DNA from: a bacterium BMS3Abin02
GTDB lineage: Bacteria; Actinomycetota; Acidimicrobiia; Spongiisociales; UBA4744
Direction: 5' to 3'
Assembly: GCA_002897675.1 (NCBI GenBank)
Contig: BDSU01000003.1
Span: 19,449 to 83,448 of the forward strand
Length of the DNA stretch: 64,000 nucleotides
Made by a program: the position numbers and the translations under genes. Shown one piece after another: positions 3,372-34,077 of this stretch (positions are counted from its first letter, which is position 1; every line of letters begins with the position of its first letter). The notes beneath the pieces were generated by a model. That model saw only the letters and a list, made by a program, of their open reading frames with translations, had not been told where the DNA came from and did not search any database.

Positions 3372-3372
3372 G

Positions 3373-7434: not shown

Positions 7435-7440
7435 GCCCGC

Positions 7441-8322
7441 TCAGCACCCTTCCAGGTCCGACGCGTTCGCCGACTCGCCTCTTCGCTGGCCCCGCTCCAC
7501 CGGCGCGCCGGTGGCCGCGTAGTCCACCCAGGAGCGCTCGTAGTGCATGACCCGTGGGTAACCCAGCAATTCCTTGAGGACGAACCACGTGTGGGCCGAC
7601 CGTGCACCCGACAGCGAGTAGGTGACGACCCGGGCATTTCGGGGGACCGACTCGCGTTCGAAGAGTGATCGCAACTCGTTGGAGGACCGGAAGCTCCGGT
7701 CGGCGTTGGTCGTCCGCGGCCAGGGAATATTCCTGGCTCCGGGAATGTGGCCTCCCGCATAGCCCTGATGCTGCGACGCGTTCGGAGGCGCCAGCTGCTC
7801 TCCCCGATACTCCTGTGGCGATCGGGTGTCGACGAGAACCGTATCGCTATCTGCGGCCAGGACGTGGTCTCGGTTCGCTCTCAGTTCATGTCGATCCGCG
7901 GCTGTCACCCGAAAACCCGTGGGTCGCGGTGAGGGGATCTCCCGGGTCAGTGGGCGCGCCTCCAGTTGCCACTTCTCGCGCCCGCCGTCCAGGAGGTGGA
8001 CATCGTCGAAGCCCCGGTACTTGAGCAGCCAGTAGCCGAACGCTCCCAACCAGTTGCCGGGGCCTCCGTACACGACGACAGTGGACGTGTCGTCGACCCC
8101 CGCCCGGGAGAGCACCCGACTCAGTCCTGCCTGATCAGGGCAAGACGGCGGTTCCGGACGCTGCAGATCGCATAATCCACTCCAGAAGGTTGCGCCCGGA
8201 AGGTGACCCTGCTCGTAGGCGGCCGGTTCGGCGGCCACTTCGAGGATCCTGATTCGCGGGTCCCCGAGGCGACGTTCCAGCCACTCGGTGCTGACGAGGG
8301 CGTCTGGGTTGGCGTAGCTCAT
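7441..8322 (-). CDS. tandem-rhodanese thiosulfate/3-mercaptopyruvate sulfurtransferase-like protein (SseA/CysA-like); the predicted active-site Cys appears replaced by Ser
   Basis: Two rhodanese domains. The C-terminal catalytic loop reads VVTYSLSGARSAHTW, with S at the position where CxxGxR normally has Cys. Confidence 0.75.
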   Translation of the reverse strand: MSYANPDALVSTEWLERRLGDPRIRILEVAAEPAAYEQGHLPGATFWSGLCDLQRPEPPSCPDQAGLSRVLSRAGVDDTSTVVVYGGPGNWLGAFGYWLLKYRGFDDVHLLDGGREKWQLEARPLTREIPSPRPTGFRVTAADRHELRANRDHVLAADSDTVLVDTRSPQEYRGEQLAPPNASQHQGYAGGHIPGARNIPWPRTTNADRSFRSSNELRSLFERESVPRNARVVTYSLSGARSAHTWFVLKELLGYPRVMHYERSWVDYAATGAPVERGQRRGESANASDLEGC

Positions 8323-8947: not shown

Positions 8948-10558
8948 TCATGGGGCTGCGGTGGGCTCCGACCGGCTGGGGAGCCTGTAGGCACGTCGCC
9001 AGCAGTTGAGGTATTGCTCCACCTCGTATTCCCAACGGGTGTCGTGCCAGCCCAGTTCGTCTTGGACGATGGTCCGGATTCGGGGAAGGAGGTCGGCACC
9101 GCCGTCCGGGACCAGTAGGCCGACGCGAACACGCCGGAGCAGGAGGTCCTCGAGATGCACGACTGCTTCGGTTCGAGCTGCCCAGCGCAGTTCGGCCCAC
9201 AGCAGCGGTGTACCGGGGATGAGCGAGAGCTCTCCTGGACCCGCGGCCTGGATGAGGGTGGCAGCATCATTCGACCACCAGCCACCCAATCTGCGAGCCA
9301 GGTCCTCGCCGAGTTCTCCAGGTGGGACGTCATCGGCCGAATCGAGCGCAGGGGCATCGTGATCGGCGGGGGCCAGGTCCGGGATGTGGGAACGCAGAGC
9401 GTCGATGGCATCACGGGCGATGAGCCGGAACGTGGTCAACTTGCCTCCGGTGAGGGTGAGCAGACCCTGTTCGTCGAGGATGATGTAGTCGCGCGACTCC
9501 TGCGACGGATTTCGCTTGCCGCTTCCGATGACGGGACGTACGCCGGAGTAGGTGGCTGTCACATCGGCAGGGCGGATATCGAGGGCCGGGAAGAACGCGT
9601 GGACGCCTTCCAGCAGATAGTCGACTTCTCGACGGCTGATGGTCGGCTCGTCGTCGAGCGGAGCAACGTGGTCGACATCCGTGGTGCCGACGATCGTGAC
9701 GCCCTCCCAGGGGAAGAAGAACACGGGTCTGCTGTCCTTGGGATGGAGGACGGCCACCGCTTGTGGAACCGGCAGGCGCCAGGCCTGGATGATCAGGTGA
9801 CTGCCGCGTAGAGGGCGGATCATCGGCTCACCGTCGACCCGGCTCCGCAGCCGGTCGGCCCAGGCACCGGTGGCGTTGATCACCGCCTTGGCGGACGCCT
9901 CGGTGGTTCGACCCGTCTCCGTGTCCAGGACTCGCACGCCCACGACTTGGCCGTCGCGCCGGAGCAGATCGACCACTCGGGCGTAGTTGAGGGCCGTGGC
10001 ACCCGACCGGACGGCTTCTTTGAGCACTCGAAGCACAAGGCGGGCATCGTCGGTGCGGGCGTCGAGATAATGGAAGCCGCCGCGCAGGCCCGTGGCTTTG
10101 ATGTGGGGGGCCAGCAGGCGGAAGTCGCCGGCATCATGGAATGCATGACGCCATTGCAGAGCGAGGAGGTCATACAACATCAGTCCCAATCGGTCCAACA
10201 GTCGACCCGGGTGTTCGCCCCGATAGGTTGCCAGGAGGAAACCGAGCGGGTCGACCAACCCGGGTCCCTCCTGGAGGAGCCGGTTGCGTTCCCGCACCGC
10301 CGCTCGAGTGATGCCGATCTTCCCTTCCTTGAGGTAGCGGAGGCCGCCATGCACGAGCTTCGAGGAGCGGCTCGAGGCGCCCCAGGCGAAATCGCGCTGC
10401 TCGACCAGCAATGCCCGCAGACCGAGTCGGGCGGCCTCGCGCAGGATGGCGGCGCCGGTGATGCCGCCACCGACAACGACGAGGTCCCACGGGCGGTCGA
10501 GCGCGGACCAGATGGCTTCCCGTCGGCCGGCCCAAGAGTTCCCGTGTGGTGCACTCAT
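8948..10558 (-). CDS. glpD: FAD-dependent glycerol-3-phosphate dehydrogenase
   Basis: N-terminal dinucleotide-binding motif DLVVVGGGITGAAILREAARLG and GlpD-like length. The start is taken at the internal ATG (MSAPHGN…), which overlaps the TGA of the upstream oxidase (ATGA). The 616-aa table ORF has an Arg-rich spurious extension. Confidence 0.85.
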   Translation of the reverse strand: MSAPHGNSWAGRREAIWSALDRPWDLVVVGGGITGAAILREAARLGLRALLVEQRDFAWGASSRSSKLVHGGLRYLKEGKIGITRAAVRERNRLLQEGPGLVDPLGFLLATYRGEHPGRLLDRLGLMLYDLLALQWRHAFHDAGDFRLLAPHIKATGLRGGFHYLDARTDDARLVLRVLKEAVRSGATALNYARVVDLLRRDGQVVGVRVLDTETGRTTEASAKAVINATGAWADRLRSRVDGEPMIRPLRGSHLIIQAWRLPVPQAVAVLHPKDSRPVFFFPWEGVTIVGTTDVDHVAPLDDEPTISRREVDYLLEGVHAFFPALDIRPADVTATYSGVRPVIGSGKRNPSQESRDYIILDEQGLLTLTGGKLTTFRLIARDAIDALRSHIPDLAPADHDAPALDSADDVPPGELGEDLARRLGGWWSNDAATLIQAAGPGELSLIPGTPLLWAELRWAARTEAVVHLEDLLLRRVRVGLLVPDGGADLLPRIRTIVQDELGWHDTRWEYEVEQYLNCWRRAYRLPSRSEPTAAP

Positions 10559-12192
10559 GGCACAAGCTTTCCGGGATTCATGAGTCCGTCCGGGTCGAAG
10601 CGACGCAACGCGTCTCCGATCACCGCCACGCCCAGCGCGCCCTTCTCGGTTTGCATGTAGGGGAGGTGGTCCAGACCCACGCCATGGTGATGGCTGATCG
10701 TGCCACCGTGGGCGAGAATCGTCTCGCTGACGGCTCGCTTCAGCCGTCGAGCGCGATCGATGGTCCTCTCGAACTCGGCGGCCGTCCGGAACACGCACGT
10801 TGTGTAGACGCTCGCTCCGGTCGGGTATACGTGGGAAATGTGGGTGAAGGTGAGAATCCGCTCATCGGTGTCATGGAGGGGAGTGTGGAGGGCAGCTTCT
10901 TCGATCGCTTCCACGATTTCGGCGACATGGGTCCAGTCCGTGGCGGTTTCCCAAGTGTCGACGGCATAGCCCATTTGCCACAGGTTGTTCCGCAGATAAG
11001 GTGCGGCGAACCGGCCGGCGAGCCAGCGGTTGCCGAGTGGGCGCCCGACGTTCACGCCGCCGTGGCGTCGGATGATGCGGATGGCGATCCTGCGAGCCCG
11101 CCGCACCTCAACGGCGGCTCCGGTAAAGCCCATGATGAGCAGGCTCTTCGCCTGGCCGATCTTCCGCAGCGAAAAGACTCTCTCCATGGCTGCGATGGCT
11201 CGCGGATGCCCGGCGAGAGCGAGCGTCAGTATGGTTTCTCGGCTGGAGCTGAGTCGAAGCATGGAAAGTGGTATCCCGGCCTGAACCATCTCGCGAATGG
11301 CGTTCTGCCCTGTAGCGAAACCGGGGAAGAACACTCCGTGAAACTGTTCCCGTTCAGGGAACCGTGTCACCCGCACGGTGGCCCGGGTAAGGACCCCGAG
11401 ACGCCCTTCGGAGCCGAGCACGAGCTGGCGGAGATCCGGACCCGCCGCCGAGGCAGGGTAGGGCGGCAATTCGATGGACCCGGCAGGCGCCTCCAATCGT
11501 CCGCCGGCGAAAAGATCTTCCATGCGTCCGTATCCGAGTGACTGCTGGCCACTGGAGCGGGTGGCCACCCAGCCGCCCAGCGTCGAGTACTCGAACGATT
11601 GGGGGAAGTGCCCCAGCGTGTAGCCGCGCGCTCGGAGCTGGCCCTCGAGGTCGGGGCCCGACACGCCGGCGCCGAAGGTGGCGAGGCGGCTCACCTCGTC
11701 GAAATGGAGCAATTGGTTGATGCGTCGCATGTCGATCGTGACGACCGGGCGATCGTCCGGTTGGGGATTGATGTGGCCCAGGACGCTCGTACCGCCCCCG
11801 TAGGGGATGAGGCGAGCCCCGATATGCGCTGCCCACGTGAGTACCTCTCTGACCTCTTCTTCGGTGCGTGGCAGCACCACCCCGTCGGGGAACGAGCCGA
11901 TCCTGCCAGAGCGGAGTGCGACCCAATCGAGGAGGCTTTGGCCGCGAGCGTGCCGGAGCCGAACGCCGGGGTCTGTGAGGACCAGTGGGTGGTGGGGGAG
12001 TCTGGGGGTCGGTACCGTGGCGATCACCGACTCGAACGGCGCGTCGTCCGGAGGCGTGCCGACACCGATGACGTTGCGCAACATGTGGGCCCCGCTGGGC
12101 GACAGAGGATGGTCGGTCCCGTCGTCTCCCCAGCCGTTCCAGCGTCGCATGGCTATGGGACGGTCAAGGTGGCGCTGCCGGCGCTTCGCCAC
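10555..12192 (-). CDS. FAD-linked oxidase (FAD_binding_4 / alkylglycerone-phosphate-synthase- or GlcD-like flavoprotein)
   Basis: 545 aa with FAD-binding PCMH-type N-domain motifs (…RLIPYGGGTSVLG…) and a C-terminal HHGVG motif. It is co-directional with glpD and overlaps it. Confidence 0.75.
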   Translation of the reverse strand: MAKRRQRHLDRPIAMRRWNGWGDDGTDHPLSPSGAHMLRNVIGVGTPPDDAPFESVIATVPTPRLPHHPLVLTDPGVRLRHARGQSLLDWVALRSGRIGSFPDGVVLPRTEEEVREVLTWAAHIGARLIPYGGGTSVLGHINPQPDDRPVVTIDMRRINQLLHFDEVSRLATFGAGVSGPDLEGQLRARGYTLGHFPQSFEYSTLGGWVATRSSGQQSLGYGRMEDLFAGGRLEAPAGSIELPPYPASAAGPDLRQLVLGSEGRLGVLTRATVRVTRFPEREQFHGVFFPGFATGQNAIREMVQAGIPLSMLRLSSSRETILTLALAGHPRAIAAMERVFSLRKIGQAKSLLIMGFTGAAVEVRRARRIAIRIIRRHGGVNVGRPLGNRWLAGRFAAPYLRNNLWQMGYAVDTWETATDWTHVAEIVEAIEEAALHTPLHDTDERILTFTHISHVYPTGASVYTTCVFRTAAEFERTIDRARRLKRAVSETILAHGGTISHHHGVGLDHLPYMQTEKGALGVAVIGDALRRFDPDGLMNPGKLVP

Positions 12193-12866
12193 AGTTCGAT
12201 GCTGTCTTCCATGACCTCCCGACTCACGCGCTCTGCAGCGTCACGATCGTTGGCCCGGGCGGCAGTCTCGAGATCCGAGTAGAAACGTCTCGACCGGTCG
12301 CGGGCCTCGGAAAGAGCGAAGTAGATACTGGCCAATCGCTCGTAGAAACCTGCGAATCCATTCAGGATGAGTGTGAAGATCGGGTTGCCGGATGCGATCG
12401 ACAATCGCCGGTGCACGTCCCAATCGAAGGCGGCGAAGGCCTCAGCCCGATCGGGAAGGTCACGATGCCGAGCGACGAGGGCTGCCACCTCGTCGGGGAC
12501 ACATGCAACTGCAGCAGCTATGTACGGCGGCGCCAGGTACAAGCGGATTTCCAGCAGATGCTCCACGAAGTCGGTGGAGAGGTGTCGCGAGTGTTCGACC
12601 AGGGCACCGAGCACGTTGAGGCCACCTTCCTGCCAGAAGTGATTCACCACCGTGCGCCTGCCCTGACGGACGGTGACCCACCCATCCCGCTCCAGGCGCT
12701 GAAGGGCCTCGCGCAACGTGGGGCGCGTGACTCCGAGACGGATAGCGAGTTGGCGTTCCCCCGGGAGCTCGGACCCTGGTGGGAACGTCCCATCCAACAC
12801 CGCCTCGACGAGCGAATGCTCGGCGTGGTCGGCCGGCCGGACGGGAGCAATCCACGTGGCGGTCAT
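12153..12866 (-). CDS. GntR-family transcriptional regulator (FadR/FCD subfamily)
   Basis: N-terminal wHTH (…GERQLAIRLGVTRPTLREALQRLERDGWV…) and a C-terminal all-helical FCD-like domain. It is the first gene of the gntR / oxidase / glpD string. Confidence 0.85.
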   Translation of the reverse strand: MTATWIAPVRPADHAEHSLVEAVLDGTFPPGSELPGERQLAIRLGVTRPTLREALQRLERDGWVTVRQGRRTVVNHFWQEGGLNVLGALVEHSRHLSTDFVEHLLEIRLYLAPPYIAAAVACVPDEVAALVARHRDLPDRAEAFAAFDWDVHRRLSIASGNPIFTLILNGFAGFYERLASIYFALSEARDRSRRFYSDLETAARANDRDAAERVSREVMEDSIELWRSAGSATLTVP

Positions 12867-12877
12867 ACGTTGTTCCT

Positions 12878-12901
12878 AACTGGTGAGTGGTCTTACCAGT
12901 T
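12878..12901. promoter_or_regulatory. candidate FadR-type operator: inverted repeat AACTGGT-N10-ACCAGTT immediately upstream of the gntR start codon
   Basis: aactggtgagtggtcttaccagtt lies 12-35 nt upstream of the ATG at 12866. The TGGT…ACCA core is the classical GntR/FadR operator half-site arrangement. Confidence 0.4.
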
Positions 12902-13700
12902 GCCATGTTACACCTGAGAACCCGGGAAGTGGATACGGAATCCGTCCGTCTTCCGGGGGTTGTCGACTCTCGTTCCGAGTCGTTCGGTCATCGTCATATG
13001 TACTGCCGATCGGCACCATGGTTCCGGTCGCCGGCCGTTCACAGAGCAGCAGAATCTCGAACGGTGCCGCCCAGGACCAGAGGCGGTTCGAACAGGCCAC
13101 CGGTCGTCGCGTGGGCTCCGGTTCGTATCTTGACGACCGACGTAATCGATTCGCGGGAACGCCACATCGGAGCCGTCGCTTTCGCAACTCTGTTCGAAGG
13201 CGAGAGGGTCACGATCGAGTGAACCGTGATGCCATGATGGCCCACTCGTGATGCTCTAACCCGGGCTGCTCGGCGAGCGGTTCGAGGTTTCATCGGCACC
13301 AATCGGCGCCGATGTTTGCGAAATGAGCGCTCACATGCAGCAAAGGCCCGATAAACCTGCGAAAGTCCGAGACAGGGTCATCGGAATCGGCCATACTGCC
13401 CGCATGCATTTTGCCAGGTGTCGCTCGAGGGCGTTTTGGCTCACCCAACATCCACGATCTGCGTCCTGCCAGAGACGGAGACGCGCGGACAACTCGGACA
13501 TCGCAGCAACTCTCTGGGCATCGCTCGACAGTCGAGTGTGTCCTCGACACGAGGAACACACCTCACACACAGCTACCGCACAGACCACCAACTTTGCTCA
13601 AAAGGAGTCCGGATGACGTGTCGATGGATGGTCGAAGAGGAGACGAAAGGACCCGCTGCATCTCCCGGTTCGCGCGAACGTTGCGGAGGCTCACCTTCCC

Positions 13701-14276
13701 GTGAGAGACTCTGTCATCATGACGAATACTGAGATGCGTGACGCCGTCGGGCTCTTATGGCCCGAGCTCGACTGGATCCAAGATGAGGATCTCCGAGAGA
13801 GAACCCTCGCCACCTGGGTACTCGCATTCGAGCGCAGTCCGCTGGAACCGGACGACCTGCATGAGATCCCCTTTACACTGCTCGTCCCCGACTGCCCGAC
13901 GTCGTTCATGGAACACAAACGCTGTGTCGTGCACATCGCCCGCGGAGCTGCCGAAGCGATGCAGGAGTTTCTCGGGGACGCACTCACCATCGATATGGAC
14001 ACGGTGATCGCCGGCGGGATTCTGATCGATGTAGGCAAGCTGCTCGAGTACGAAAAGGTCGCCGGCGAGGCCGTCCAGAGCGAGTTGGGCCGCTACCTGC
14101 GCCATCCGTTCACAGGTGTGTCGCTCGCCATGGAGTGCGGTGTCCCCGACTCGGTTTGTCATATCATCGCCGCCCACTCCAAAGAGGGGGATCTGATCAC
14201 GCGTTCCGTGGAGGCAACGATTCTGCACCATGCCGACTTCATGAGTTTTCTTCCTTTCAAGGACCTGACGAGGTAG
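13701..14276 (+). CDS. HD-domain protein (putative metal-dependent phosphohydrolase)
   Basis: 191 aa with His/Asp-rich segments (…CVVHIARG…, …IIAAHSKEGD…LHHADF…). The alternative start MTNTEMRD is at 13719. It is the first gene of the co-directional cluster. Confidence 0.5.
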   Translation: MRDSVIMTNTEMRDAVGLLWPELDWIQDEDLRERTLATWVLAFERSPLEPDDLHEIPFTLLVPDCPTSFMEHKRCVVHIARGAAEAMQEFLGDALTIDMDTVIAGGILIDVGKLLEYEKVAGEAVQSELGRYLRHPFTGVSLAMECGVPDSVCHIIAAHSKEGDLITRSVEATILHHADFMSFLPFKDLTR

Positions 14277-14282
14277 CCACCA

Positions 14283-15683
14283 ATGAAGAGTCCCCATCCC
14301 GTTTCCGAGATGATCACCGCCCCGATGGCCCGCTGGGCCGCCGACCTGACATTCGCCGACTTGTCCGAAGAGGCGGTGCGCCAGGCGAAGCGCTATCTGC
14401 TCGACTCGCTGGGTTGCGCTCTCGGCGGCTATACCCAACACGATGTGAAGATCCTGCTCGACGTCTTGGAGGAGACCGCCGGCTCGGGTCCGGCCACGGT
14501 GATTGGCACCGGCGCAAGGGTGGACGCCGTGTCCGCATCTCTTGTCAATGCCCTGATGGTGAGGGCGATGGACTACAACGACATCTACTGGCAACAGGAC
14601 CCGTCGCATCCCTCCGACATCATCCCCGGCGCTCTCGCCCTCGCCGAGCGCGCAGACGGAAACGGCAAGGAGCTATGCGTCGGAATCGTCCTTGGTCACG
14701 AATTCGAGATGCGGCTTTGCGAGGCTGCGTTTCCAGGCATTCGTGAGCGAGGCTGGCACCATGCCACCTTCACGGCTTTCGCCGCCGCCCTCGTGGCGGG
14801 GCGGATGCTGCATCTCGACGCCGAACGCATCCAACATGCAGTCGGGATCTCGGGAAGCTCCCACGGGACGTTCGGCGCGGTGACAGCCGGCAAGCTCACG
14901 ATGATGAAGAACACCGTGGATCCTCTTGCGACGCAACGCGGGGTCCTGGCCGCCCTCCTTGCAGAACGGGGCTACACAGGACCAGAGCACGTGATCGACG
15001 GCAAGGAAGGATTGGTCGAAACGCTCGGCCCCGACTGGAAACTGGACATCCTGACGGACGGGCTCGGGGAATCGTGGCGTATCACACGCTGCGGCATGAA
15101 GGCATTTCCGACCGAAGCCCTGACACATACACCGATTTCCGCAGTGCTCGACCTGGTGACGGAGCATGACCTTTCTGCAGACGACGTCGAGGAGGTCCGT
15201 ATCCGATCTCTCGCGCGAGCTGCGGACATCCTGGCGGATCCCAGCAAGTACACGCCGCACAACAGAGAGACCGCCGACCACAGCCTGCCCTACGTGATTG
15301 CTGCGGCTTTGGTCGACCGACAGGTCACGCCGCTCCAATTCACGACCGCCAAGATCGAAGATCCTCGCATTCGGGCACAGCTGAACAAGGTGATCGTGGT
15401 CGCGGACCCGGAGATCGAGAAGGACTTCCCGGCGCGGCAACGTGTCGCCGTGACCATCACCACCATCGACGGCCGAAACCTCACGAAGGAGCTGGACTAT
15501 CCAAAAGGGCATCCAAGCAATCCGCTCACCACCACTGAGATCGAGCAGAAGTTTGATGCACTTGCGGCGCCGGTCATGTCGTCAGGACGTCGCCAACAGA
15601 TCAAAGATGCCGTCTGGAACCTGGAGAACCTCGACACCGTGCGTGATCTGACCGAACTGTTGCGTGTTGATGGTGTGTCGTGA
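14283..15683 (+). CDS. MmgE/PrpD-family protein (2-methylcitrate dehydratase / cis-aconitate decarboxylase family)
   Basis: 466 aa of full-length MmgE/PrpD architecture. Its stop overlaps the next gene's start by 4 nt. Confidence 0.85.
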   Translation: MKSPHPVSEMITAPMARWAADLTFADLSEEAVRQAKRYLLDSLGCALGGYTQHDVKILLDVLEETAGSGPATVIGTGARVDAVSASLVNALMVRAMDYNDIYWQQDPSHPSDIIPGALALAERADGNGKELCVGIVLGHEFEMRLCEAAFPGIRERGWHHATFTAFAAALVAGRMLHLDAERIQHAVGISGSSHGTFGAVTAGKLTMMKNTVDPLATQRGVLAALLAERGYTGPEHVIDGKEGLVETLGPDWKLDILTDGLGESWRITRCGMKAFPTEALTHTPISAVLDLVTEHDLSADDVEEVRIRSLARAADILADPSKYTPHNRETADHSLPYVIAAALVDRQVTPLQFTTAKIEDPRIRAQLNKVIVVADPEIEKDFPARQRVAVTITTIDGRNLTKELDYPKGHPSNPLTTTEIEQKFDALAAPVMSSGRRQQIKDAVWNLENLDTVRDLTELLRVDGVS

Positions 15684-17626
15684 CCAGGCCCCAAACGGTC
15701 GTTGAGGCGATAACGCAAACCCATCTCGCCGGCACTGTCAAGAGTGGATCGGTCCAAGCCGGTGACTTTGTGACCATTCGCCCCGACCACGTGCTGACCC
15801 ACGACAACACGGCTCCCGTGCTGAAGAAGTTCCAGACGATGGGGGCAACACGCGTCTCGGATCCAAAACAGCCCGTGTTCGCTCTCGACCACGATATCCA
15901 GAACACGTCGGAGGCCAACCTGGCGAAGTACCGGAAGATCGAGGAGTTCGCCAGGAGTCAGGGCGTCGATTTCTACGCCGCCGGCGAAGGAATCGGCCAT
16001 CAGATCATGGTCGAACAGGGATATGTCACTCCCGGTTCGTTCGTCGTCGCATCCGACTCGCATGCGAATATCTACGGTGCGCTCGGAGCGATAGGAACGC
16101 CTGTCGTGCGTACCGACGCCGCCGCGATCTGGGCGACTCGCGAGTTCTGGTGGCAGGTTCCGCGCACCGTCCGCGTCGAGTTGATAGGAGAGCTTCCTTC
16201 GGGAGCAGCCGGAAAGGATGTGATCCTCATCCTATGCGGGCTCTACTCCCATGGAGAAGTACTCAATGCCGCCGTCGAATTCACCGGACCCGGAGTGAAG
16301 AGCCTGACCATGGAAGCACGGCTCACCATCTCGAACATGACGACCGAATGGGGTGCCTTGGTCGGATGGTTCCCCGTCGACCGGATCACCCTCGACTACC
16401 TCGCGTGGCGGCGTGGAGCCATCGGACCCAGAGGACGGCGACGCCTTGGTGACATCCGAGATACGGTGGCCGGTTATGCGAGCGCCGATCCGGATGCCCG
16501 CTACGCGGCGAACATCGTGTTCGACCTCGGCGAAGTCATTCCGCATGTCAACGGTCCCGATACCGTGCAGGCGACGAGGTCGCTCATGACCATCCAGGAA
16601 CAGGCCGTGTCCATCGACAAGGCCTACCTGGTCTCGTGTGTGAATTCGCGCTTCGAGGATCTCGCCGCGGCAGCGAGGGAACTCGTGGGCAGACACGTCG
16701 CGGACGGCGTCGAGCTGTATTTCGCTGCAGCCAGTCGCGAGGTTCAAGAGCGTGCCGAAGCTGCCGGACACTGGCAGACGATCCTCGATGCGGGCGGGCG
16801 ACCGTTGCCACCCGGGTGCGGTCCGTGCATCGGTCTTGGGACCGGTCTGCTCGCAGCGGGGGAGGTGGGGATCTCTGCGACGAACCGCAACTTCAAAGGC
16901 CGCATGGGCTCACGCGACGCTCAATGCTATCTCGCCAGCCCTCAGGTGGTGGCCGCCTCCGCGGTGGCCGGCCATATCTGTGGTCCGGGTGACTGGCCAG
17001 ACCATGTTCTGCAGCCGAGTATCGACGTCGCCGACCGCTCGGTGCCAGATGTTGCGAAGAGTGTGACGATCAAAGAAGGGTTCCCTGCCCGGCTGGAAGG
17101 CCGGATCGTGTTGCTCACCCAGGACAACATCAATACCGACGGCATCTATGGCAAGGACTACACCTATCGTGACGACATGACTCCCGAAGCCATGGCCCGT
17201 GTCGTCATGGAGAACTACGATCCGGAGTTCGCCTCCATGATCCGACCCGGTGACATCCTCATCGGCGGTCACAACTTCGGGACAGGCTCGAGTCGGGAAC
17301 AGGCGGCGACCGCTCTCCAGGCGGCGGGCATTGCCATGGTGATTGCCTCCAGCTACTCACAGACGTACCTGCGCAATGCATTCAACAACGGCTTTGTGTG
17401 CGTCGAATGCCCTGAGCTCGTCGCCTACCTGCGGGAGATGTTCGCAACGGCGATCGACCGCGGCGCCCGTTCCATCTTCTCGGATGACACGTTGAGTGTC
17501 GACTTCACGACCGGGAAGGTCTCCGTCGAAAACCGCGTGTTCCGTTTTCCCGTCCTCGGTGAAGTTCCCCAATCTCTCGTGGCGGCGGGCGGTCTGGAGA
17601 ACGCCGTTCGCCGGAGGCTTTCATGA
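15680..17626 (+). CDS. aconitase-family hydro-lyase with fused LeuC-like large and LeuD-like small domains
   Basis: 648 aa with the ASDSH motif, the Fe-S ligand region PGCGPCIGLGTG, NRNFKGRMG, and a C-terminal swivel domain with GHNFGTGSSRE. Confidence 0.8.
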   Translation: MTRPQTVVEAITQTHLAGTVKSGSVQAGDFVTIRPDHVLTHDNTAPVLKKFQTMGATRVSDPKQPVFALDHDIQNTSEANLAKYRKIEEFARSQGVDFYAAGEGIGHQIMVEQGYVTPGSFVVASDSHANIYGALGAIGTPVVRTDAAAIWATREFWWQVPRTVRVELIGELPSGAAGKDVILILCGLYSHGEVLNAAVEFTGPGVKSLTMEARLTISNMTTEWGALVGWFPVDRITLDYLAWRRGAIGPRGRRRLGDIRDTVAGYASADPDARYAANIVFDLGEVIPHVNGPDTVQATRSLMTIQEQAVSIDKAYLVSCVNSRFEDLAAAARELVGRHVADGVELYFAAASREVQERAEAAGHWQTILDAGGRPLPPGCGPCIGLGTGLLAAGEVGISATNRNFKGRMGSRDAQCYLASPQVVAASAVAGHICGPGDWPDHVLQPSIDVADRSVPDVAKSVTIKEGFPARLEGRIVLLTQDNINTDGIYGKDYTYRDDMTPEAMARVVMENYDPEFASMIRPGDILIGGHNFGTGSSREQAATALQAAGIAMVIASSYSQTYLRNAFNNGFVCVECPELVAYLREMFATAIDRGARSIFSDDTLSVDFTTGKVSVENRVFRFPVLGEVPQSLVAAGGLENAVRRRLS

Positions 17627-17651
17627 CATGACAACGCACAAGGAGGATGCA

Positions 17652-18833
17652 ATGACTCGAAGGACCGTCGTGACGATGCCAGGTGATGGCATCGGCGCCT
17701 TTGTCCTCCCTGAATCGATCCGCGTCCTCGACGCCGTCGGTTTCGAAGCAGACTACGTCCAGGCCGACATCGGCTGGGAGTGCTGGCGGGAACAGGGCAA
17801 CCCCCTCCCTGAGGCTACGATCGATCTTCTGGCCAAGCACAAGCTCGGTCTGTTCGGCGCGATCACCTCCAAGCCAAAGGCAGCGGCGGAAGCGGAGCTC
17901 GCTCCTGAATTACGCGGCCAGGGCCACGTGTACTTCAGCCCAATCGTGAGCCTTCGTCAGCGCTTCGGCCTGGACATCTGCGTTCGACCCTGTCGTTCCT
18001 ACACGGGCAATCCGCTCAATTTCGTTCGCCAAACCGGTAACGGTGTCGAGGAGCCGCCCGTAGACGCGGTGATCTTTCGTCAGAACACCGAAGGTCTCTA
18101 CGCCGGTATCGAGTGGACCGATCCTCCCGCCGAGGTTCTTGCGGCGCTGGCAACGCACCCCAAGTTTGCGCCGTTCACCTCGATTCCGAGCGCCGATCTG
18201 GCGATCTCCACCCGCATATTTTCACGGAACGCATGCCGGCGCATCGTCCGTTCCGCTTTCGAATACGCCACAAAGCACGGCTACGAGACGGTCACCGTGT
18301 GTGAGAAGCCCAACGTCCTGAGGGAAACATCGGGCATGCTCGAGGAGGTCGCGAAAGAGATCGGCGCCGACTACCCGGACATCGAGCGACGGTCGACGAA
18401 CATCGATGCCCAGATGATGTGGCTCACCAAGAACCCGGAGAACTACGGAGTCCTGGTGGCAGGAAACCTGTTCGGTGACATCATCTCCGACGGCTTCGCA
18501 GGACTGGTCGGTGGGCTCGGGTTCGCCTGCTCGGGGAACATCGGGGACGAGGTGGCAGTATTCGAACCGACACACGGCTCGGCGCCCAAATACGCGAACC
18601 TGGCGCCGTCGATTGTCAACCCGATCGCCATGATTCTGGCGTCTGCAATGCTGCTCGATCATGTAGGAGAGGAAGACGGGGCCGACCGGATCAGAGAAGC
18701 AGTCGGGAACGTCATTCGTGATGGTGCGGTCAGAACCTACGACATGATGCACCTTCCCGGAGGGCCGGGAGTCGTCGACGCGGGTGCTGCGACCACCTCC
18801 GAAATGACCGACGCCATTGTGAGCGCCTTATGA
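17652..18833 (+). CDS. isocitrate/isopropylmalate-dehydrogenase-family beta-hydroxyacid oxidative decarboxylase (IDH / IPMDH / tartrate-DH / homoisocitrate-DH family)
   Basis: Motifs MPGDGIG, NLFGDIISD and HGSAPK. The start is chosen at the ATG preceded by AGGAGG at 17641-17646. The table ORF (17496) overlaps the upstream gene. Confidence 0.8.
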   Translation: MTRRTVVTMPGDGIGAFVLPESIRVLDAVGFEADYVQADIGWECWREQGNPLPEATIDLLAKHKLGLFGAITSKPKAAAEAELAPELRGQGHVYFSPIVSLRQRFGLDICVRPCRSYTGNPLNFVRQTGNGVEEPPVDAVIFRQNTEGLYAGIEWTDPPAEVLAALATHPKFAPFTSIPSADLAISTRIFSRNACRRIVRSAFEYATKHGYETVTVCEKPNVLRETSGMLEEVAKEIGADYPDIERRSTNIDAQMMWLTKNPENYGVLVAGNLFGDIISDGFAGLVGGLGFACSGNIGDEVAVFEPTHGSAPKYANLAPSIVNPIAMILASAMLLDHVGEEDGADRIREAVGNVIRDGAVRTYDMMHLPGGPGVVDAGAATTSEMTDAIVSAL

Positions 18834-20041
18834 GGTCGCGAAGCGGCGAAGCGGGTTTCACCGGTCCTGGCGTCCGGTCCGATCTGCGCGTGAAAGTCGA
18901 GGAACGAGAACGTGGCGGTATCGTCGTCGATCTGGTGTCAAGGGTCGAGGCCTACTACGGGAATGCGATTCGGCGTCAGGTCCGCGACCAACTCGAACAT
19001 CTCGGTCTCGAGAGCGCGCACGTCACGATCAACGACATGGGTGCGCTGCCTTTCACCATCGCCGCACGAGTTGAGACGGCGGCTCGGAGGGCGGGGCTCC
19101 TCGACGAACACCATCTCGATACCCTCTCCGAACCCGACCGCGCTCCGTCCGAGCGGCGGCGATTGCGACGATCACGCCTCTACCTTCCGGGCAACGATCC
19201 GAAGTACATGGTCAATGCGGGCCTCTATGGCTCCGACGCTCTCATCCTCGATCTCGAGGACTCCGTACACCCGGCCGAGAAGGACGGCGCCCGCCTTCTG
19301 GTGGCCAATGCGATCCGGCGCCTGGATTTCGGACCGGCAGAGATCATGGTCCGTATCAATCAACTTCCGGTCGGACTCGAAGACCTCGCGACGGTGATCC
19401 CCAGCGGACCAGACCTGATCCTCGTCCCGAAAGTGGAAGACCCGAGCGAAATCGAAGAGGTCGACCGGACGATTGCCAGGATGCTCGAAGAGCTGGGTTG
19501 GCAGCGGCCGATCTGGATCATGCCGATCCTCGAGTCCGCTCTCGGAGTCGAGATGGCGTTCGACATCGCCCGCTGTTGCGACAGGGTCGTCGCTCTCACC
19601 GTGGGACTCGAAGACTTGACCGCGAACCTCGGTGTGCCCGGATCTGCGAAGGAGCAGGCGACACGATACGCGCGTGCCCGCATTGTGAATGCTGCGGTCG
19701 CCGCAGCCGTTCAGCCGATCGACTCGGTGTTCGCCGACGTGTCCGATCTCGAGGGATTGGCATCCTGGTGCGAGAGATCGAAGGCGCTGGGCTTCGAAGG
19801 AATGGGCTGTCTTCATCCGCGTCAGATCCCGATTGTTCATCAGGCATTCACTCCCACTCCCGAGGAGATCGAGCGGGCGCAAGCGATCGTTGCCGCCTTC
19901 GAGCGGGCACGAGAAGAGGGTTTGGCGATCGTCAGTATTGGTTCCAAGATGATCGACGCCCCGATCGTGCAAAGAGCTGTGAAGGTCGTCGAGCGGGCTC
20001 GAGCGCTGGGCCTCTTGGTGGAAGAGAGGGGTGGGCAATGA
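18830..20041 (+). CDS. citrate-lyase acyl-carrier (CitD-like) domain fused to citrate-lyase beta / citryl-CoA-lyase (CitE, HpcH/HpaI family) domain
   Basis: The N-terminal roughly 100 aa aligns with CitD (…SRVEAYYGNAIRRQVRDQLEHLGLESAHVTINDMGALPFTIAARVETA…, and an RSD segment at the prosthetic-group Ser position). The rest is CitE-like (LYLPGNDPKYMVNAGLYGSDALILDLEDSV). Confidence 0.75.
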   Translation: MRSRSGEAGFTGPGVRSDLRVKVEERERGGIVVDLVSRVEAYYGNAIRRQVRDQLEHLGLESAHVTINDMGALPFTIAARVETAARRAGLLDEHHLDTLSEPDRAPSERRRLRRSRLYLPGNDPKYMVNAGLYGSDALILDLEDSVHPAEKDGARLLVANAIRRLDFGPAEIMVRINQLPVGLEDLATVIPSGPDLILVPKVEDPSEIEEVDRTIARMLEELGWQRPIWIMPILESALGVEMAFDIARCCDRVVALTVGLEDLTANLGVPGSAKEQATRYARARIVNAAVAAAVQPIDSVFADVSDLEGLASWCERSKALGFEGMGCLHPRQIPIVHQAFTPTPEEIERAQAIVAAFERAREEGLAIVSIGSKMIDAPIVQRAVKVVERARALGLLVEERGGQ

Positions 20042-21615
20042 TGGCGGGCTTCACCGAGAACGCCGCGGGTCGGAGGGTTCCGGCCGTCGTGAACGGCCAT
20101 GAGCAGACCCCGTACCGAGGCATCGGCGGCCACCGGCCGGCCGGCAAGAAGGCCGGGCCTCCGATCCGAGTCTCGTCCGACTACCCGGACAACGGAGACA
20201 AACGTGTCGGATCGCTGGAAGTGGCCCTCGAGCTGTGCAGTCTGGCCGATGGGATGGTTGTTTCCACTCATCATCACCTTCGCAACGGTGACCGTGTGGC
20301 TCTCAGCCTCCTCAATGCTGCGAGACGCATGGGGATTCGCGATCTGACCTGGTTTCCGAGTGCGTCATTCCCCTGCCACGAACCGGTGATCGATCTGATG
20401 GAGGCCGGCGTCGTGCATCACATCGAAGGGAGCATGAACGGGCCGCTGGGGGAGTACTGCTCACAGGGGAGGATGCGTGGACTGGGGGTGCTTCGCTCAC
20501 ACGGCGGCCGTTGGCAGGCGATCTCCGATGGCGAAGTGCACATCGATATTGCCGTGATCGCCGCTCCGTGCGCAGACATGTTCGGCAACGCAAACGGTGC
20601 ACAAGGCAAGTCCGCGTGTGGATCTCTCGGCTTCGCTCTGGCAGATTCCCTGTATGCCGATCGAGTCATTGTCGTTACCGACGGACTCGTTCCATTCCCA
20701 TGCGTTCCCTGGCAGATACAGGGCAACAACGTGGACTATGTGGTCGAGGTGGCCTCGATCGGAGATCCGAGCAAGATCGTCTCCGGCACGACCCAGATCA
20801 CGAAAAGCCCGGATCGGCTCAAGATCGCCGAGTACACGGCTCGGTTTGTCAGAGATTCAGGCATCCTGCGCGATGGTTTCTCCTTCCAGGCGGGAGCGGG
20901 GGGCATCTCACTTGCCTTCACCGCGTTCCTCGCCGACATGATGCGAAACTCCGGCGCCACTGCACGGTTCGTCCGCGGTGGCTCCACCCGCGTGCTCGTC
21001 GACATGTTGCGGGAAGGCCTGACCGACTACATCCTCGACGGTCAAACATTCGATCTCAGTGGTGTCCAATCGATTGCGACAGACTCGCGCCACGTGGCGA
21101 CTTCCCCATTCACTTCGTACAACTTCAACGGCAAAGGCAACTTCGCGAGCATGGTCGATGCCGTTGTTCTCGGCGCAACCGAGGTCGACGTCGATTTCAA
21201 CGCCAACGTGGTGACACACTCAGACGGACGTCTACTGCATGGCATCGGCGGATGGCAGAACTGCCTGTTCGCCGGTTGCACGATCTTGGCGATGCCGTCG
21301 TTTCGCGACCGAAATCCCGTCATTCGAGATCGAGTGACCACTCTCACGGGGCCGGGCGAACTCATCGATGTCGTGGTGACCGAGCGGGGTGTCGCCATCA
21401 ATCCGAGGCGCCAGGACCTGATCGATGCAACCAAGGCGTCTGATCTTCCCATCGTCGACATTCGGCACTTGCAGGCCGACGTGGAGCGGATCTGTGGAGG
21501 CAAGCCGGATCCGGCCGCACTGACGGAGCAGCCCGCGGCTGTGATCAAGTGGGTGGACGGCACAGTCCTCGACACCGTGTGGCAAACGGAAAACCGGCGA
21601 ACCCAGGGCTCGTAG
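20038..21615 (+). CDS. citF: citrate lyase alpha subunit / citrate CoA-transferase (CitF family)
   Basis: About 525 aa of CitF-like sequence. The ATG at 20038 overlaps the citDE stop (ATGA). The 705-aa table ORF (19498) is an out-of-frame 5' extension across citE. Confidence 0.8.
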   Translation: MMAGFTENAAGRRVPAVVNGHEQTPYRGIGGHRPAGKKAGPPIRVSSDYPDNGDKRVGSLEVALELCSLADGMVVSTHHHLRNGDRVALSLLNAARRMGIRDLTWFPSASFPCHEPVIDLMEAGVVHHIEGSMNGPLGEYCSQGRMRGLGVLRSHGGRWQAISDGEVHIDIAVIAAPCADMFGNANGAQGKSACGSLGFALADSLYADRVIVVTDGLVPFPCVPWQIQGNNVDYVVEVASIGDPSKIVSGTTQITKSPDRLKIAEYTARFVRDSGILRDGFSFQAGAGGISLAFTAFLADMMRNSGATARFVRGGSTRVLVDMLREGLTDYILDGQTFDLSGVQSIATDSRHVATSPFTSYNFNGKGNFASMVDAVVLGATEVDVDFNANVVTHSDGRLLHGIGGWQNCLFAGCTILAMPSFRDRNPVIRDRVTTLTGPGELIDVVVTERGVAINPRRQDLIDATKASDLPIVDIRHLQADVERICGGKPDPAALTEQPAAVIKWVDGTVLDTVWQTENRRTQGS

Positions 21616-21634
21616 ATGCGCTGAGCGCACCCCT

Positions 21635-21654
21635 GAGCCCAGGGTTCGGGGCTC
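21635..21654. terminator. GC hairpin between convergent citF and ftcD (possible bidirectional terminator)
   Basis: gagccc-agggttcg-gggctc: a 6-bp stem with an 8-nt loop, located between the stops at 21615 and 21659. Confidence 0.3.
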
Positions 21655-21658
21655 CCGG

Positions 21659-23314
21659 TTACTGATCGCCGGCGATACGGCTCTCCACGGTCGCCAGCAC
21701 CTTGGATGCCAGCGTCCTAGAAGACTCCAATGCAGCGCTTCGTCGAGCTTGCAGGTGTTCTGTTTCGGGATGATCTGGAAGTGAGCTGAGGTTGATGCGT
21801 ACGTTCAGAGACGCACCCTCTGCGGCAGCGAGCGCACACATGGCAGCGACGCCGGTATCGCTGACGGCGCTCTCGTTGCCGCTCTTGGCAACCACCGCCG
21901 CGGCGTCGAGGGCAGCGACGCAATGCTCGATCACTTCGAGAGGGACGATGCTGGCGGTCAGTGTGGCGTCCTGCACGGCACGGTCGCGAGCGAGACGTTC
22001 GGCGTCGGTCTTGCGAGGCAGGCGCATCGCCTCCATCAGCGAGTCGAACGACTCGGTGTCCCGATCGACCGCGTCGAGGAACCAGTCCTTGAGTAGCTGT
22101 GCCGACCGGCCGGTGTCCTCCATCTTGGTGTCGCTCGTCTTGGAGAACGTGAGTGCCGCGACCATCGAAGTCAGTGCCACCGACAGGGAGGCAGCCAACG
22201 CGGCGACACTGCCACCTCCGGGCGTCGGCGTGCCCGCCGAGAGGACGTCGGCGAAGTGTCGAAGCGAGTGGTTGACGAGGCCCGACGGTACCCCTTGATA
22301 TCGGTACTCGATCACTTTGTCTGCCGGATCGAACGGTGAGACATCGTCCAGGCCGAGGCTCAGCGCCGCGATATGCATTCGTTCTGCTTCCGGGACGCCA
22401 GTCGTCTTGCCCTGGGCACGCAAGTAGTGATCCCCGGCGGCAAGCATCGCGCGGCGGGGGACAAGGCCTACGATCTCGCTACCCGTTACGCGCACGCCGA
22501 GCCGGCCGGCCTCCTCGCAAGCCGCGTCGAAGACGGCATGAAGTGAGGTGATGTCTGGATCGGTCAAGTTGAACGACACCTGCGCTCTTCCGTACTCCTC
22601 GATGTACCAGCCGACCCCTCGTAGGTGGGTAAACCGTCCCGGCTCGCGCAGAGCAACACCGTTCGCATCACGTTCGACCTTGCCGTCGGGACCACGTTTT
22701 GGTCGCCCACTTTCCCTGAGAGCGCCGGCGATCCTGTTGGCGATTCTGCGGTCGCGGGTGTTGAGGTTCACGTTGTAGGCAATCAGGAAGTTGCGTGCGC
22801 CGATCGCGATCGCTCCGTTCTTCGCGTTGAATCCGGTCGGACCAAAGTCGGGCTCGTCCTCACGATCGGCAAGCCCTTCGTACTCACCGCGGCGAACGTC
22901 GGCGAGTGATCGGTGCTCCGGGCACGATGCGGCTTCCCCGTACAAGTACACGGGGATTCGGAGTTCGGCTCCAACGCGTTCGCCCAGACGCTGTGCGATC
23001 TGAACGCAATCCTCCATGGAGGCTCCGTCGAGTGGAACGAACGGGCAAACATCGGTGCTTCCCATTCGTGGATGTTCACCATGGTGGGTCCGCATGTCGA
23101 TCAGGTCGGCTGCCTTCTCGATGGCGGCGAACGCGGCTTCCTCCACGGCTTCCGGCGATCCCGCGAACGTCATCACGGTGCGATTCGTGGCAGCCCCAGG
23201 GTCGACATCGAGCAGTGTCACGCCGTCGACGGCGCCGATGACGGCGGCGATCGCATCGATGACACGCCGATCGCTACCTTCGCTGAAGTTGGGAATGCAT
23301 TCGATGAGTTTCAT
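21659..23314 (-). CDS. ftcD: glutamate formimidoyltransferase fused to formiminotetrahydrofolate cyclodeaminase (FtcD-like)
   Basis: N-terminal formiminotransferase (MKLIECIPNFSEGSD…) and a C-terminal cyclodeaminase helical domain. The start is taken at the internal MKLIE… ATG. Confidence 0.8.
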   Translation of the reverse strand: MKLIECIPNFSEGSDRRVIDAIAAVIGAVDGVTLLDVDPGAATNRTVMTFAGSPEAVEEAAFAAIEKAADLIDMRTHHGEHPRMGSTDVCPFVPLDGASMEDCVQIAQRLGERVGAELRIPVYLYGEAASCPEHRSLADVRRGEYEGLADREDEPDFGPTGFNAKNGAIAIGARNFLIAYNVNLNTRDRRIANRIAGALRESGRPKRGPDGKVERDANGVALREPGRFTHLRGVGWYIEEYGRAQVSFNLTDPDITSLHAVFDAACEEAGRLGVRVTGSEIVGLVPRRAMLAAGDHYLRAQGKTTGVPEAERMHIAALSLGLDDVSPFDPADKVIEYRYQGVPSGLVNHSLRHFADVLSAGTPTPGGGSVAALAASLSVALTSMVAALTFSKTSDTKMEDTGRSAQLLKDWFLDAVDRDTESFDSLMEAMRLPRKTDAERLARDRAVQDATLTASIVPLEVIEHCVAALDAAAVVAKSGNESAVSDTGVAAMCALAAAEGASLNVRINLSSLPDHPETEHLQARRSAALESSRTLASKVLATVESRIAGDQ

Positions 23315-34024: not shown

Positions 34025-34077
34025 GGAGATCCGAGATGCTCGTTGCGCCCTCCCAGTCATTCCTGGTTTCCTAGCCG

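Follow-up and report, generated by a model that had tools for sequence, protein, structure and literature searches.

A six-gene operon shared by several bacterial phyla joins a homoaconitase-type hydro-lyase to a citrate-lyase-type enzyme and may act on C7 tricarboxylates

We analysed a stretch of 64,000 nucleotides from 'bacterium BMS3Abin02' (assembly GCA_002897675.1, contig BDSU01000003.1, positions 19,449 to 83,448 of the forward strand; hereafter the window), and in particular an operon of six genes that encode an HD-fold protein, a PrpD-family protein, a fused aconitase-family hydro-lyase, a beta-decarboxylating dehydrogenase, a CitD-CitE fusion and a CitF-type transferase. The reading that we prefer, with a probability of about 0.4, is that the six genes would form a self-contained module working on seven-carbon (C7) 'homo' tricarboxylates, with 2-oxoglutarate and acetate at one end of the interconversion and 2-oxoadipate and CO2 at the other. 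The C7 series is favoured because the hydro-lyase passes the homoaconitase equivalog model and has a homoaconitase as its best structural relative, and because the dehydrogenase carries a substrate loop of the homoisocitrate dehydrogenase (HICDH) type in which the Asn that binds isocitrate has been lost. A preliminary description of this DNA had proposed a lyase, a dehydratase, a hydratase and a decarboxylating dehydrogenase acting in turn on a tricarboxylate. That general logic stands, and of the two versions then offered we favour the homocitrate (C7) one, while the conversion of oxaloacetate to 2-oxoglutarate is less favoured.

The hydro-lyase gives the clearest indication of substrate. Its Aconitase and Aconitase_C domains are fused in one chain of 648 aa, and the three cysteine ligands of the [4Fe-4S] cluster are kept in the motifs SC..NSR and CGPCIG. 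Against TIGR00139, the homoaconitase equivalog, the protein scored 706 bits (cutoff 529.9), whereas it reached 350 and 282 bits on models for aconitate hydratase (cutoffs 612 and 719) and also failed those for isopropylmalate dehydratase. It is the only protein of the operon that passes its equivalog membership test. Members of its family are named homoaconitase by both NCBI and JGI, and its best PDB relative is the large subunit of the homoaconitase from M. jannaschii (4kp2, 1.3e-71), an enzyme that catalyses both half-reactions. Judged by these matches it is most likely a Lys4-type homoaconitase, with a predicted activity between cis-homoaconitate and homoisocitrate. Fungal and Thermus homoaconitases interconvert only homoaconitate and homoisocitrate, leave homocitrate to a second enzyme and belong to a type specialised away from aconitate; the partnership of methylcitrate dehydratase with aconitase has been drawn as a parallel (PMC3556520).

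The dehydrogenase points in the same direction through its substrate loop, Y-F-S-P-I-V-S-L-R, which matches the pattern of S. pombe HICDH (3TY3, Y-S-S-P-I-V-A-L-R). The S. pombe loop was read from the PDB sequence, a fragment of yeast Lys12 having served only as bait. In E. coli isocitrate dehydrogenase (IDH), Ser113 and Asn115 bind the gamma-carboxylate of isocitrate. When the loop is aligned to the E. coli stretch S113-L-N115-V-A-L-R119, Ser113 is kept and the position of Asn115 is occupied by Ile, as it is in 48 of 48 family members. The catalytic residues R119, R129, R153, Y160, K230, D283, D307 and D311 of the E. coli enzyme are invariant in the same 48. The family also conserves the NADP determinants K344, Y345, V351, Y391 and R395, the last of which is His in the window protein only. 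The E. coli IDH reference sequence reproduced 15 of 15 textbook residue numbers. Among NCBIfam models the best were the AksF homoisocitrate dehydrogenases, both below cutoff (AksF 269.7 bits against 540, AksF2 262.9 against 500); the model iso_homocit_dh (144.2 against 680) and every IDH equivalog were missed too. The closest PDB entries were a putative NAD-dependent isocitrate dehydrogenase (6lky, 6.2e-58) and, second, T. thermophilus HICDH (3.5e-56). On alignment the protein thus resembles HICDH in its substrate loop, while its coenzyme pocket looks to be of the NADP type found in E. coli IDH. Biosynthetic HICDHs that have been characterised use NAD.

The last two genes encode the components of an acyl carrier protein (ACP)-type lyase. 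The CitD-CitE fusion matches the Pfam families ACP (PF06857, 69.7 bits) and HpcH_HpaI (165.6 bits). Its best NCBIfam match in the lyase domain is citE (TIGR01588; 250.7 bits, cutoff 443.4), its carrier domain scored 61.2 on citD (cutoff 63.5), and CitF reached 474.6 bits on TIGR01584, slightly below the cutoff of 501.45. All three components therefore pass their Pfam domain cutoffs and all three miss the equivalog cutoffs. The nearest solved structures to the fusion are CLYBL and malyl-CoA lyase, and the Asp of a MID(A/M)P stretch aligns with the equivalent stretch of CLYBL, where we take it to be the catalytic residue. Ser14 of E. coli CitD bears the 2'-(5''-phosphoribosyl)-3'-dephospho-CoA group. 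In a MAFFT alignment with the E. coli sequence, an invariant Ser17 (R-S-D) of the window protein lies one column off this Ser14 (E-S-G-D). No LeuA-type synthase was found in any of about 90 loci, and no PrpC- or PrpB-type partner lies in the operon or is conserved beside it. The lyase stands in the place of an acetyl-CoA-dependent homocitrate synthase, which predicts the reaction between homocitrate and 2-oxoglutarate plus acetate.

The PrpD-family protein is harder to place. It failed all the PrpD equivalogs (113.1, 103.5 and 89.6 bits against cutoffs of 575, 950 and 458, respectively). Its nearest solved relatives are iminodisuccinate (IDS) epimerase (6e-41) and the IRG1-like protein of B. 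subtilis (4e-35), followed by cis-aconitate decarboxylase (CAD), against which it has a low score of 99.5 bits, and only then PrpD (4e-21). In phmmer comparisons no solved relative scored above 144 bits (over about 420 residues), compared with 760-990 bits within its own family, and identity across phyla is 70-77%. Equivalents of the active-site residues H103, H159, K207, K272 and Y318 of human CAD are kept and that of L278 is not. Since the conserved His, Lys and Tyr positions are generic for the superfamily, they leave dehydratase, decarboxylase and isomerase indistinguishable. A PrpD-family partner for a Lys4-type enzyme makes biochemical sense because homoaconitases need a second enzyme for homocitrate, and we regard the protein as a candidate homocitrate/cis-homoaconitate (de)hydratase. 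The earlier label 'PrpD-type tricarboxylate dehydratase' is thus not established, given 113 bits against a cutoff of 575 and nearest solved relatives of the IDS epimerase and IRG1-like kind.

All six open reading frames (ORFs) were recovered at the expected coordinates on the plus strand (Table 1), and independent gene callers predicted identical genes on identical public contigs, from a marine/hydrothermal metagenome (ERZ1742235, DRR093003), the metagenome-assembled genome (MAG) GCA_011040845.1 and 'bacterium BMS3Abin02'. For the first gene, one NCBI record uses an ATG that lies 18 nt further in (13719) and so has a protein of 185 aa. In the sequence itself the gene junctions measure +6 nt (HD/PrpD), -4 nt (PrpD/hydro-lyase, a GTGA overlap), +25 nt (hydro-lyase/dehydrogenase, containing the ribosome-binding site AAGGAGG), -4 nt (dehydrogenase/CitD-CitE, ATGA) and -4 nt (CitD-CitE/CitF, ATGA). 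The tight packing reported in the preliminary description is borne out by these junctions; its view of the genes as one unit is upheld by the overlaps together with strong co-conservation, and its family assignments agree with the Pfam and NCBIfam matches, which add detail to them. A scan of the operon found no internal terminator-like site above shuffle expectation and no promoter-like site, and was uninformative. At the far end, the junction with a convergent formiminotransferase-cyclodeaminase (FTCD) gene holds a hairpin with a minimum free energy (MFE) of -41.3 kcal/mol (shuffle mean -31.35, s.d. 3.27, z = -3.04; none of 200 shuffles as stable). It is without a U tract and is likely the bidirectional transcript end of the operon and the FTCD gene. 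The base composition of the operon is that of its surroundings, with no anomaly that would mark horizontal transfer. A lysine riboswitch, had one been present, would have been decisive; Rfam gave no RNA match in the window region at E <= 1 and none at the gathering threshold in seven loci from other phyla, and a reading with a riboswitch or RNA leader was dropped.

Table 1. Genes of the operon and the hairpin that follows it, with positions in the window; the last column gives median identity to the window protein among the best 80 of at least 582 loci
Feature	Position	Strand	Detail	Median identity
HD-fold protein with degenerate HD motif, core operon member	13701..14276	+	191 aa from GTG start	69%
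MmgE/PrpD-family protein, distinct subfamily	14283..15683	+	strong matches to both Pfam domains (MmgE_PrpD_N, MmgE_PrpD_C)	72%
Fused large-plus-small aconitase-family hydro-lyase of homoaconitase (fungal Lys4-like) type	15680..17626	+	TIGR00139 passed	62%
Beta-decarboxylating dehydrogenase, HICDH-like substrate loop, NADP-type coenzyme pocket	17652..18833	+	Iso_dh, 3e-78	68%
CitD-type acyl carrier (residues ~16-89) fused to CitE-type acyl-ACP oxoacid lyase (~110-395)	18830..20041	+		57%
CitF-type acyl-ACP:tricarboxylate transferase (alpha subunit of ACP-dependent lyase)	20038..21615	+	Pfam CitF, 2e-128	74%
Strong hairpin at convergent CitF/FTCD junction	21587..21664		MFE vs shuffles	

To see how far the set is kept together, we scanned genomes (one per species) with the PrpD-like protein and confirmed at least 582 loci; the locus counts and identities that follow concern the best 80 of these. 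In 58 of the 80 all six genes stand in the same order on one strand, as the preliminary description had proposed to check, and the other 22 are mostly ended by contig or locus boundaries. The 80 loci come from Acidobacteriota (including Terriglobia and Thermoanaerobaculia), Gemmatimonadota, Latescibacterota, Eisenbacteria and Rhodothermales, and their proteins are 52-80% identical to those of the window; further members were found in MAGs of Planctomycetota, Myxococcota and 'Deltaproteobacteria'. Each of three protein searches returned at least about 8,000 close relatives, and the PrpD-like protein has thousands of relatives more than 70% identical in other phyla. Such unusually high conservation (medians 57-74%) speaks for an important, constrained function, and identity of this level across phyla suggests either that the cassette has spread laterally as a whole or that it is under exceptional constraint. 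Clustering of all ORFs in the flanks of the 80 loci revealed no co-conserved transporter, regulator or acyl-CoA-dependent synthase, and beyond the six genes no ORF family occurs in more than 15 loci. The flank families that are shared, among them galactose-1-phosphate uridylyltransferase-like, purine nucleoside phosphorylase-like and thioredoxin-like proteins, look like lineage synteny on reading representative sequences. A search of a plasmid collection for cultured carriers gave no close copy, and cluster look-ups returned pipeline names only.

A few loci depart from the common order. In a Planctomycetota MAG (L085; GCA_040754415.1, 7488-14023) the operon consists of the HD, homoaconitase, dehydrogenase, CitD-CitE and CitF genes and has no PrpD-like gene. 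A MerR-type regulator gene precedes it, and DsrC-like and DsrMK-like (nitrate-reductase-gamma/CCG) genes lie a few kb upstream of it; these Dsr-type neighbours suggest anaerobic sulfur metabolism in this carrier. A deltaproteobacterial contig (L086) has the HD-homoaconitase pair only. In two Thermoanaerobaculaceae and one Polarisedimenticolaceae (L006, L070, L098) the HD, PrpD-like and homoaconitase genes are separated from the others, and in a further locus (L037) the HD-PrpD pair is split off from the remaining genes. Several possible linked partners were searched for by tblastn, namely aldehyde dehydrogenase, aminotransferase, an enzyme of AlaDH/saccharopine-dehydrogenase fold, and POR with an ADP-forming acyl-CoA synthetase, and none proved general. 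Two single loci do carry extensions: an aldehyde dehydrogenase gene overlapping the CitF stop, with an amidohydrolase after it (L088, 18454-19872), and a class-III aminotransferase gene 59 nt upstream of the HD gene (L090, 8638-9942). Both would fit amino-acid catabolism, for example from lysine to aminoadipate, but neither is general.

The split loci also bear on the HD protein, whose gene goes with the two (de)hydratase-type genes, homoaconitase and PrpD-like, and not with the carrier. The preliminary description had it leading the operon; it is indeed the first gene, but more than a leader, being a core member with enzyme-level conservation (78 of 80 loci, identity 63-76%) and a degenerate HD motif. 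Domain scores are marginal (Pfam HD 25.2 bits, cutoff 22; HDIG 27.0, cutoff 27.6). The HD doublet is ID in the window protein and AD in the consensus of the family; its Asp is invariant, its His is lost, and the H...HD...D metal-binding signature is incomplete; many further His, Asp and Cys residues are invariant. The wider family is small: in a set of 1.84 billion representatives it makes up only 966 clusters (50% identity). A PDB sequence search with the protein returned nothing significant, and fold searches returned generic HD relatives only, with YhaM the best. In our reading it is an obligatory partner, and we can only speculate that it might be an accessory to the (de)hydratases, stand in for the missing carrier-activation genes or have some other role. 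Distant full-length homologues (30-35% identity) occur on S. meliloti pSymA (L095, 8959-9591), on A. tumefaciens pAt (L096) and on haloarchaeal megaplasmids. In the rhizobia the homologue is the first gene of an ABC-transporter operon for amino acids and has a LysR regulator as its neighbour, and that of Haloarcula marismortui pHMA288 (L093) adjoins an EthD-family gene, a neighbour that a Natrinema record does not have. One pSymA record names the homologue 'YhaM family exoribonuclease', a doubtful name in metabolic contexts. These rhizobial and haloarchaeal contexts are uninformative for the operon.

Put together, the C7 module that we prefer would run through four reversible steps. In the first, the CitD-CitE and CitF lyase would interconvert homocitrate and 2-oxoglutarate plus free acetate. 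By analogy with the action of citrate lyase on citrate, an acetyl/homocitryl thioester would form on the enzyme's own carrier domain. The PrpD-family candidate would then interconvert homocitrate and cis-homoaconitate, and the Lys4-type Fe-S homoaconitase cis-homoaconitate and homoisocitrate. In the last step, the NADP-type dehydrogenase would interconvert homoisocitrate plus NADP+ and 2-oxoadipate, CO2 and NADPH. Because no step spends ATP or a CoA thioester, such a module should lie close to equilibrium and be reversible. For the citrate analogues, the equilibrium of citrate lyase is near 1 M, so that cleavage is favoured by roughly 17 kJ/mol when concentrations are millimolar, and aconitase and IDH together are, again roughly, near zero. 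On these rough figures either direction would be possible, set by the NADP(H) ratio, CO2 and acetate.

We lean slightly, at little better than even, towards the degradative direction, in which 2-oxoadipate, CO2 and NADPH would yield 2-oxoglutarate and acetate. Run this way, the module would be a 'reverse alpha-aminoadipate' route for 2-oxoadipate from lysine or tryptophan. The characterised ACP-type lyases, citrate lyase and citramalate lyase, all work in cleavage. The lean rests on this catabolic role, on the NADP-type pocket as opposed to the NAD of the biosynthetic enzymes, on the lack of linked downstream lysine-biosynthesis genes and on the lack of a LeuA-type synthase. Flux forward from acetate and a 2-oxoacid, as first proposed, was overstated, since the NADP-type pocket and the lack of an energy input at the lyase make the reverse at least as plausible. 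A more specific version, which we offer tentatively and consider rather unlikely, is a hitherto unrecognised, ATP- and CoA-independent form of this route, consisting of reductive carboxylation, the homoaconitase and PrpD-family enzyme, and an ACP-dependent homocitrate lyase. In that same rather unlikely version the 2-oxoadipate would come from the breakdown of lysine or tryptophan; the route would be widespread in soil, sediment and marine bacteria; the HD protein would activate the carrier domain instead of CitC/CitX/CitG, or supply CO2; and the operon family would be the closest prokaryotic kin of fungal Lys4 and Lys12.

Several observations weigh against the C7 module or parts of it. The dehydrogenase is below every NCBIfam equivalog cutoff and is no nearer to fungal HICDH (1e-42) than to NAD-IDH (6e-58). 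Arg85 sets specificity in T. thermophilus HICDH, and when the loop is aligned to the Thermus stretch A-I-R85-Y-L-R88 a Val stands at this position. The near-canonical CitF, to judge from its score, would fit citrate as well as homocitrate. No dehydratase is as close to the PrpD-like protein as IDS epimerase and IRG1 are. Its gene is also missing from otherwise intact operons such as L085, so the first (de)hydratase may be another protein. No citC (ligase), citX or citG was present among about 50 larger ORFs of the 64-kb window scanned against Pfam, and none is co-conserved in the flanks of the 80 loci, although these genes may lie elsewhere in the genomes. As they serve to make, attach and acetylate the prosthetic group of the carrier, their absence near the operon leaves an active ACP lyase unproven. 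No lysine-catabolic or lysine-biosynthetic genes were consistently linked in a tblastn search over the loci, and to our knowledge the reductive carboxylation of 2-oxoadipate is without precedent.

Some of these points would suit a C6 module, in which oxaloacetate plus acetate would be linked through citrate, cis-aconitate and isocitrate to 2-oxoglutarate. Such a module would bypass citrate synthase and aconitase or, in the other direction, lead reductively and without ATP from 2-oxoglutarate to oxaloacetate plus acetate. CitF is near canonical (474.6 against 501.45) and citE is the best NCBIfam model for the lyase domain, the dehydrogenase keeps the Ser113 equivalent, an insertion of the E. 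coli IDH type and the NADP pocket of that enzyme, its best overall PDB match is the putative NAD-IDH 6lky, and E. coli PrpD, according to the name of its NCBIfam model, also hydrates cis-aconitate. We nevertheless consider this reading unlikely. The isocitrate-binding Asn115 is Ile throughout the 48 members, and the hydro-lyase scores 706 bits on homoaconitase against 350 and 282 on the aconitate hydratase models, in a class of enzymes specialised away from aconitate (PMC3556520). Ordinary tricarboxylic acid (TCA) cycle enzymes are moreover expected in these phyla, and a highly conserved, dedicated duplicate would need a reason.

A substrate of another kind is an equally improbable choice: 2-methylcitrate or other alkylcitrates, longer (homo)n-citrates of the kind met in coenzyme B chemistry, citramalate/methylmalate, or another such acid, with the acid released perhaps not acetate. 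It would account for the hydrophobic Ile/Val pair that replaces the Asn of IDH and the Arg of TtHICDH, which recalls the logic of isopropylmalate dehydrogenase, and for the equivalog cutoffs missed by CitE, CitD, CitF, the dehydrogenase and the PrpD-like protein. PrpD-family enzymes typically dehydrate 2-substituted citrates, and the AksF enzymes, the best models for the dehydrogenase, accept several chain lengths. It is opposed by the homoaconitase equivalog that is passed and by a dehydrogenase loop identical in pattern to that of the specific fungal HICDH. The PrpD/2-methylcitrate models score only 90-113 bits, with cutoffs of 458-950, and no PrpC-, PrpB- or LeuA-type partner accompanies the loci.

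More doubtful is a reading in which the PrpD-like protein would be a CAD/IRG1-like decarboxylase or an IDS-epimerase-like isomerase of an ene-tricarboxylate, the homoaconitase then carrying out both hydrations. The product would be itaconate-like (for example 2-methyleneglutarate from cis-homoaconitate), or the enzyme would make a stereochemical or cis-trans correction. IDS epimerase and IRG1/CAD are the nearest solved relatives, the operon L085 runs without the gene, and the M. jannaschii homoaconitase, the best PDB relative of the hydro-lyase, does both half-reactions. The conserved equivalents of CAD H103, H159, K207, K272 and Y318 would also agree, but they are widely shared in the family and do not discriminate. 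On the other side, no linked gene would serve the further metabolism of an itaconate-like compound, nearly all loci have the PrpD-like gene, directly between the HD and hydro-lyase genes, and Lys4-type enzymes need a partner for the homocitrate step (PMC3556520).

That the genes are merely neighbours with unrelated functions in separate transcription units is very improbable, for although the set is split in L037, L098, L070, L006 and L086 and the promoter/terminator scan supports neither side, three junctions are 4-nt overlaps and 58 of 80 loci, from several phyla, keep the same order while all flanking genes vary.

Upstream of the operon, the window has a GntR/FadR-like gene (12153-12866, minus strand), which passes the FadR model NF003444. 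It belongs to a divergent unit of three genes with overlapping ends (8948-12866, minus strand), together with an FAD-linked GlcD-like oxidase and a GlpD-like FAD dehydrogenase (DAO_C). This regulator and its two partners are kept in a close relative (L091), while the syntenic locus L097 has multihaem cytochrome genes in their stead; the regulator gene is absent at the locus from L097 and from all other phyla. The GntR regulator pointed out in the preliminary description, upstream and on the opposite strand, is thus present, but it is lineage-specific and lies outside the conserved unit. Between the FadR-like and HD genes, an 835-bp stretch (12867-13700) holds no credible gene and has about 80% DNA identity to the equivalent gap in L091 (8474-9436). 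Rfam gave no match to it, and it could be a long leader, a regulatory region or an RNA of unknown type. A 296-aa ORF called in the L091 gap looks spurious, being rich in Arg, Ser and Pro and frame-broken in the window.

Farther out, a Pup-proteasome-type cluster (32210-40953) comprises an ARC/Mpa-type AAA ATPase, two proteins of the Pup-ligase family (Dop/PafA type), a proteasome-subunit ORF and PafB/PafC-like WYL regulators, and is followed by tatA and tatC (41607-42741). To judge from this complete cluster, the window is from an actinobacterium. On the other side lies an assimilatory sulfur cluster (2019-8322, minus strand) with a fusion of a pyridoxal-phosphate (PLP) enzyme and a rhodanese, a tetrapyrrole methylase, PAPS reductase, sulfite reductase, a double-rhodanese protein and, as a gene of its own, the N-terminal module of sirohaem synthase. 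Sirohaem synthase thus appears to be split, with the methylase and the dehydrogenase/chelatase encoded separately. The locus L097 (GCA_011682695.1, JAACED010000012.1), from a MAG labelled 'Gammaproteobacteria bacterium', has a homoaconitase 87% identical to that of the window and shares its gene order on either side: sulfite reductase/CysH/CysG/rhodanese, operon, FTCD, ABC, EamA and MFS. The taxonomic label of this MAG or contig looks wrong, because the window with the same synteny is actinobacterial by its Pup-proteasome genes.

The carriers of the operon include dominant, poorly cultured phyla of soil and sediment. Annotation pipelines name its products one by one, calling them 2-methylcitrate dehydratase, homoaconitase, isocitrate dehydrogenase, citrate lyase or HDIG protein. 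Such names mislead metabolic reconstructions, for example into false calls of lysine biosynthesis, a methylcitrate cycle or citrate fermentation. If the C7 reading is true, the operon would hold an ACP-dependent lyase of new specificity, a PrpD-superfamily member with a new activity and possibly a new 2-oxoadipate route. It is also a definite bacterial candidate for the stock from which the fungal pair Lys4/Lys12 evolved. The preliminary description had recognised no described pathway with this gene set, and this holds in the full-text literature, where no paper treats these genes together, most subscription journals being outside its coverage. The enzyme families are familiar, and their combination, undescribed in that literature, probably involves two or three new specificities.

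Comparison with known systems places the module among them without assigning it to any. With the first half of the alpha-aminoadipate pathway of lysine synthesis and with archaeal 2-oxoacid elongation (homocitrate synthase (HCS), Lys4/HacAB, Lys12/Hicdh/AksF) it shares a homoaconitase-type Fe-S hydro-lyase, a dehydrogenase substrate loop matching that of a fungal HICDH and a homocitrate step that calls for an enzyme of its own. It differs in having an ACP-type lyase where these pathways have a LeuA-family, acetyl-CoA-dependent synthase, an NADP-type instead of an NAD-type dehydrogenase pocket, a PrpD-family protein in place of aconitase and an additional degenerate HD protein, and in the lack of linked downstream lysine genes. 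The CitD, CitE and CitF components are those of citrate lyase (citCDEFXG; EC 4.1.3.6) and of ACP-dependent citramalate lyase. In the operon, however, CitD and CitE are fused, all three fall under the equivalog cutoffs, citC, citX and citG are not nearby, and the partners are a dehydratase, a hydratase and a dehydrogenase rather than oxaloacetate decarboxylase or a citrate carrier. The methylcitrate cycle (PrpC, PrpD, AcnB/AcnD-PrpF, PrpB) has in common a division of labour in which the tertiary alcohol falls to a PrpD-family enzyme and the secondary one to a member of the aconitase family, but the PrpD-like protein is of another subfamily (113 against a cutoff of 575), PrpC and PrpB are lacking, and the operon ends in an oxidative decarboxylation where the cycle ends in a PrpB-type lyase. 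IRG1/CAD and iminodisuccinate epimerase, finally, are the best solved relatives of the PrpD-like protein (6e-41 to 5e-27) and share its His, Lys and Tyr positions, although the relationship is distant and the genomic context wholly different. The module is therefore outside all the systems compared, and would combine the first half of the alpha-aminoadipate pathway with a C-C lyase of the citrate lyase type.

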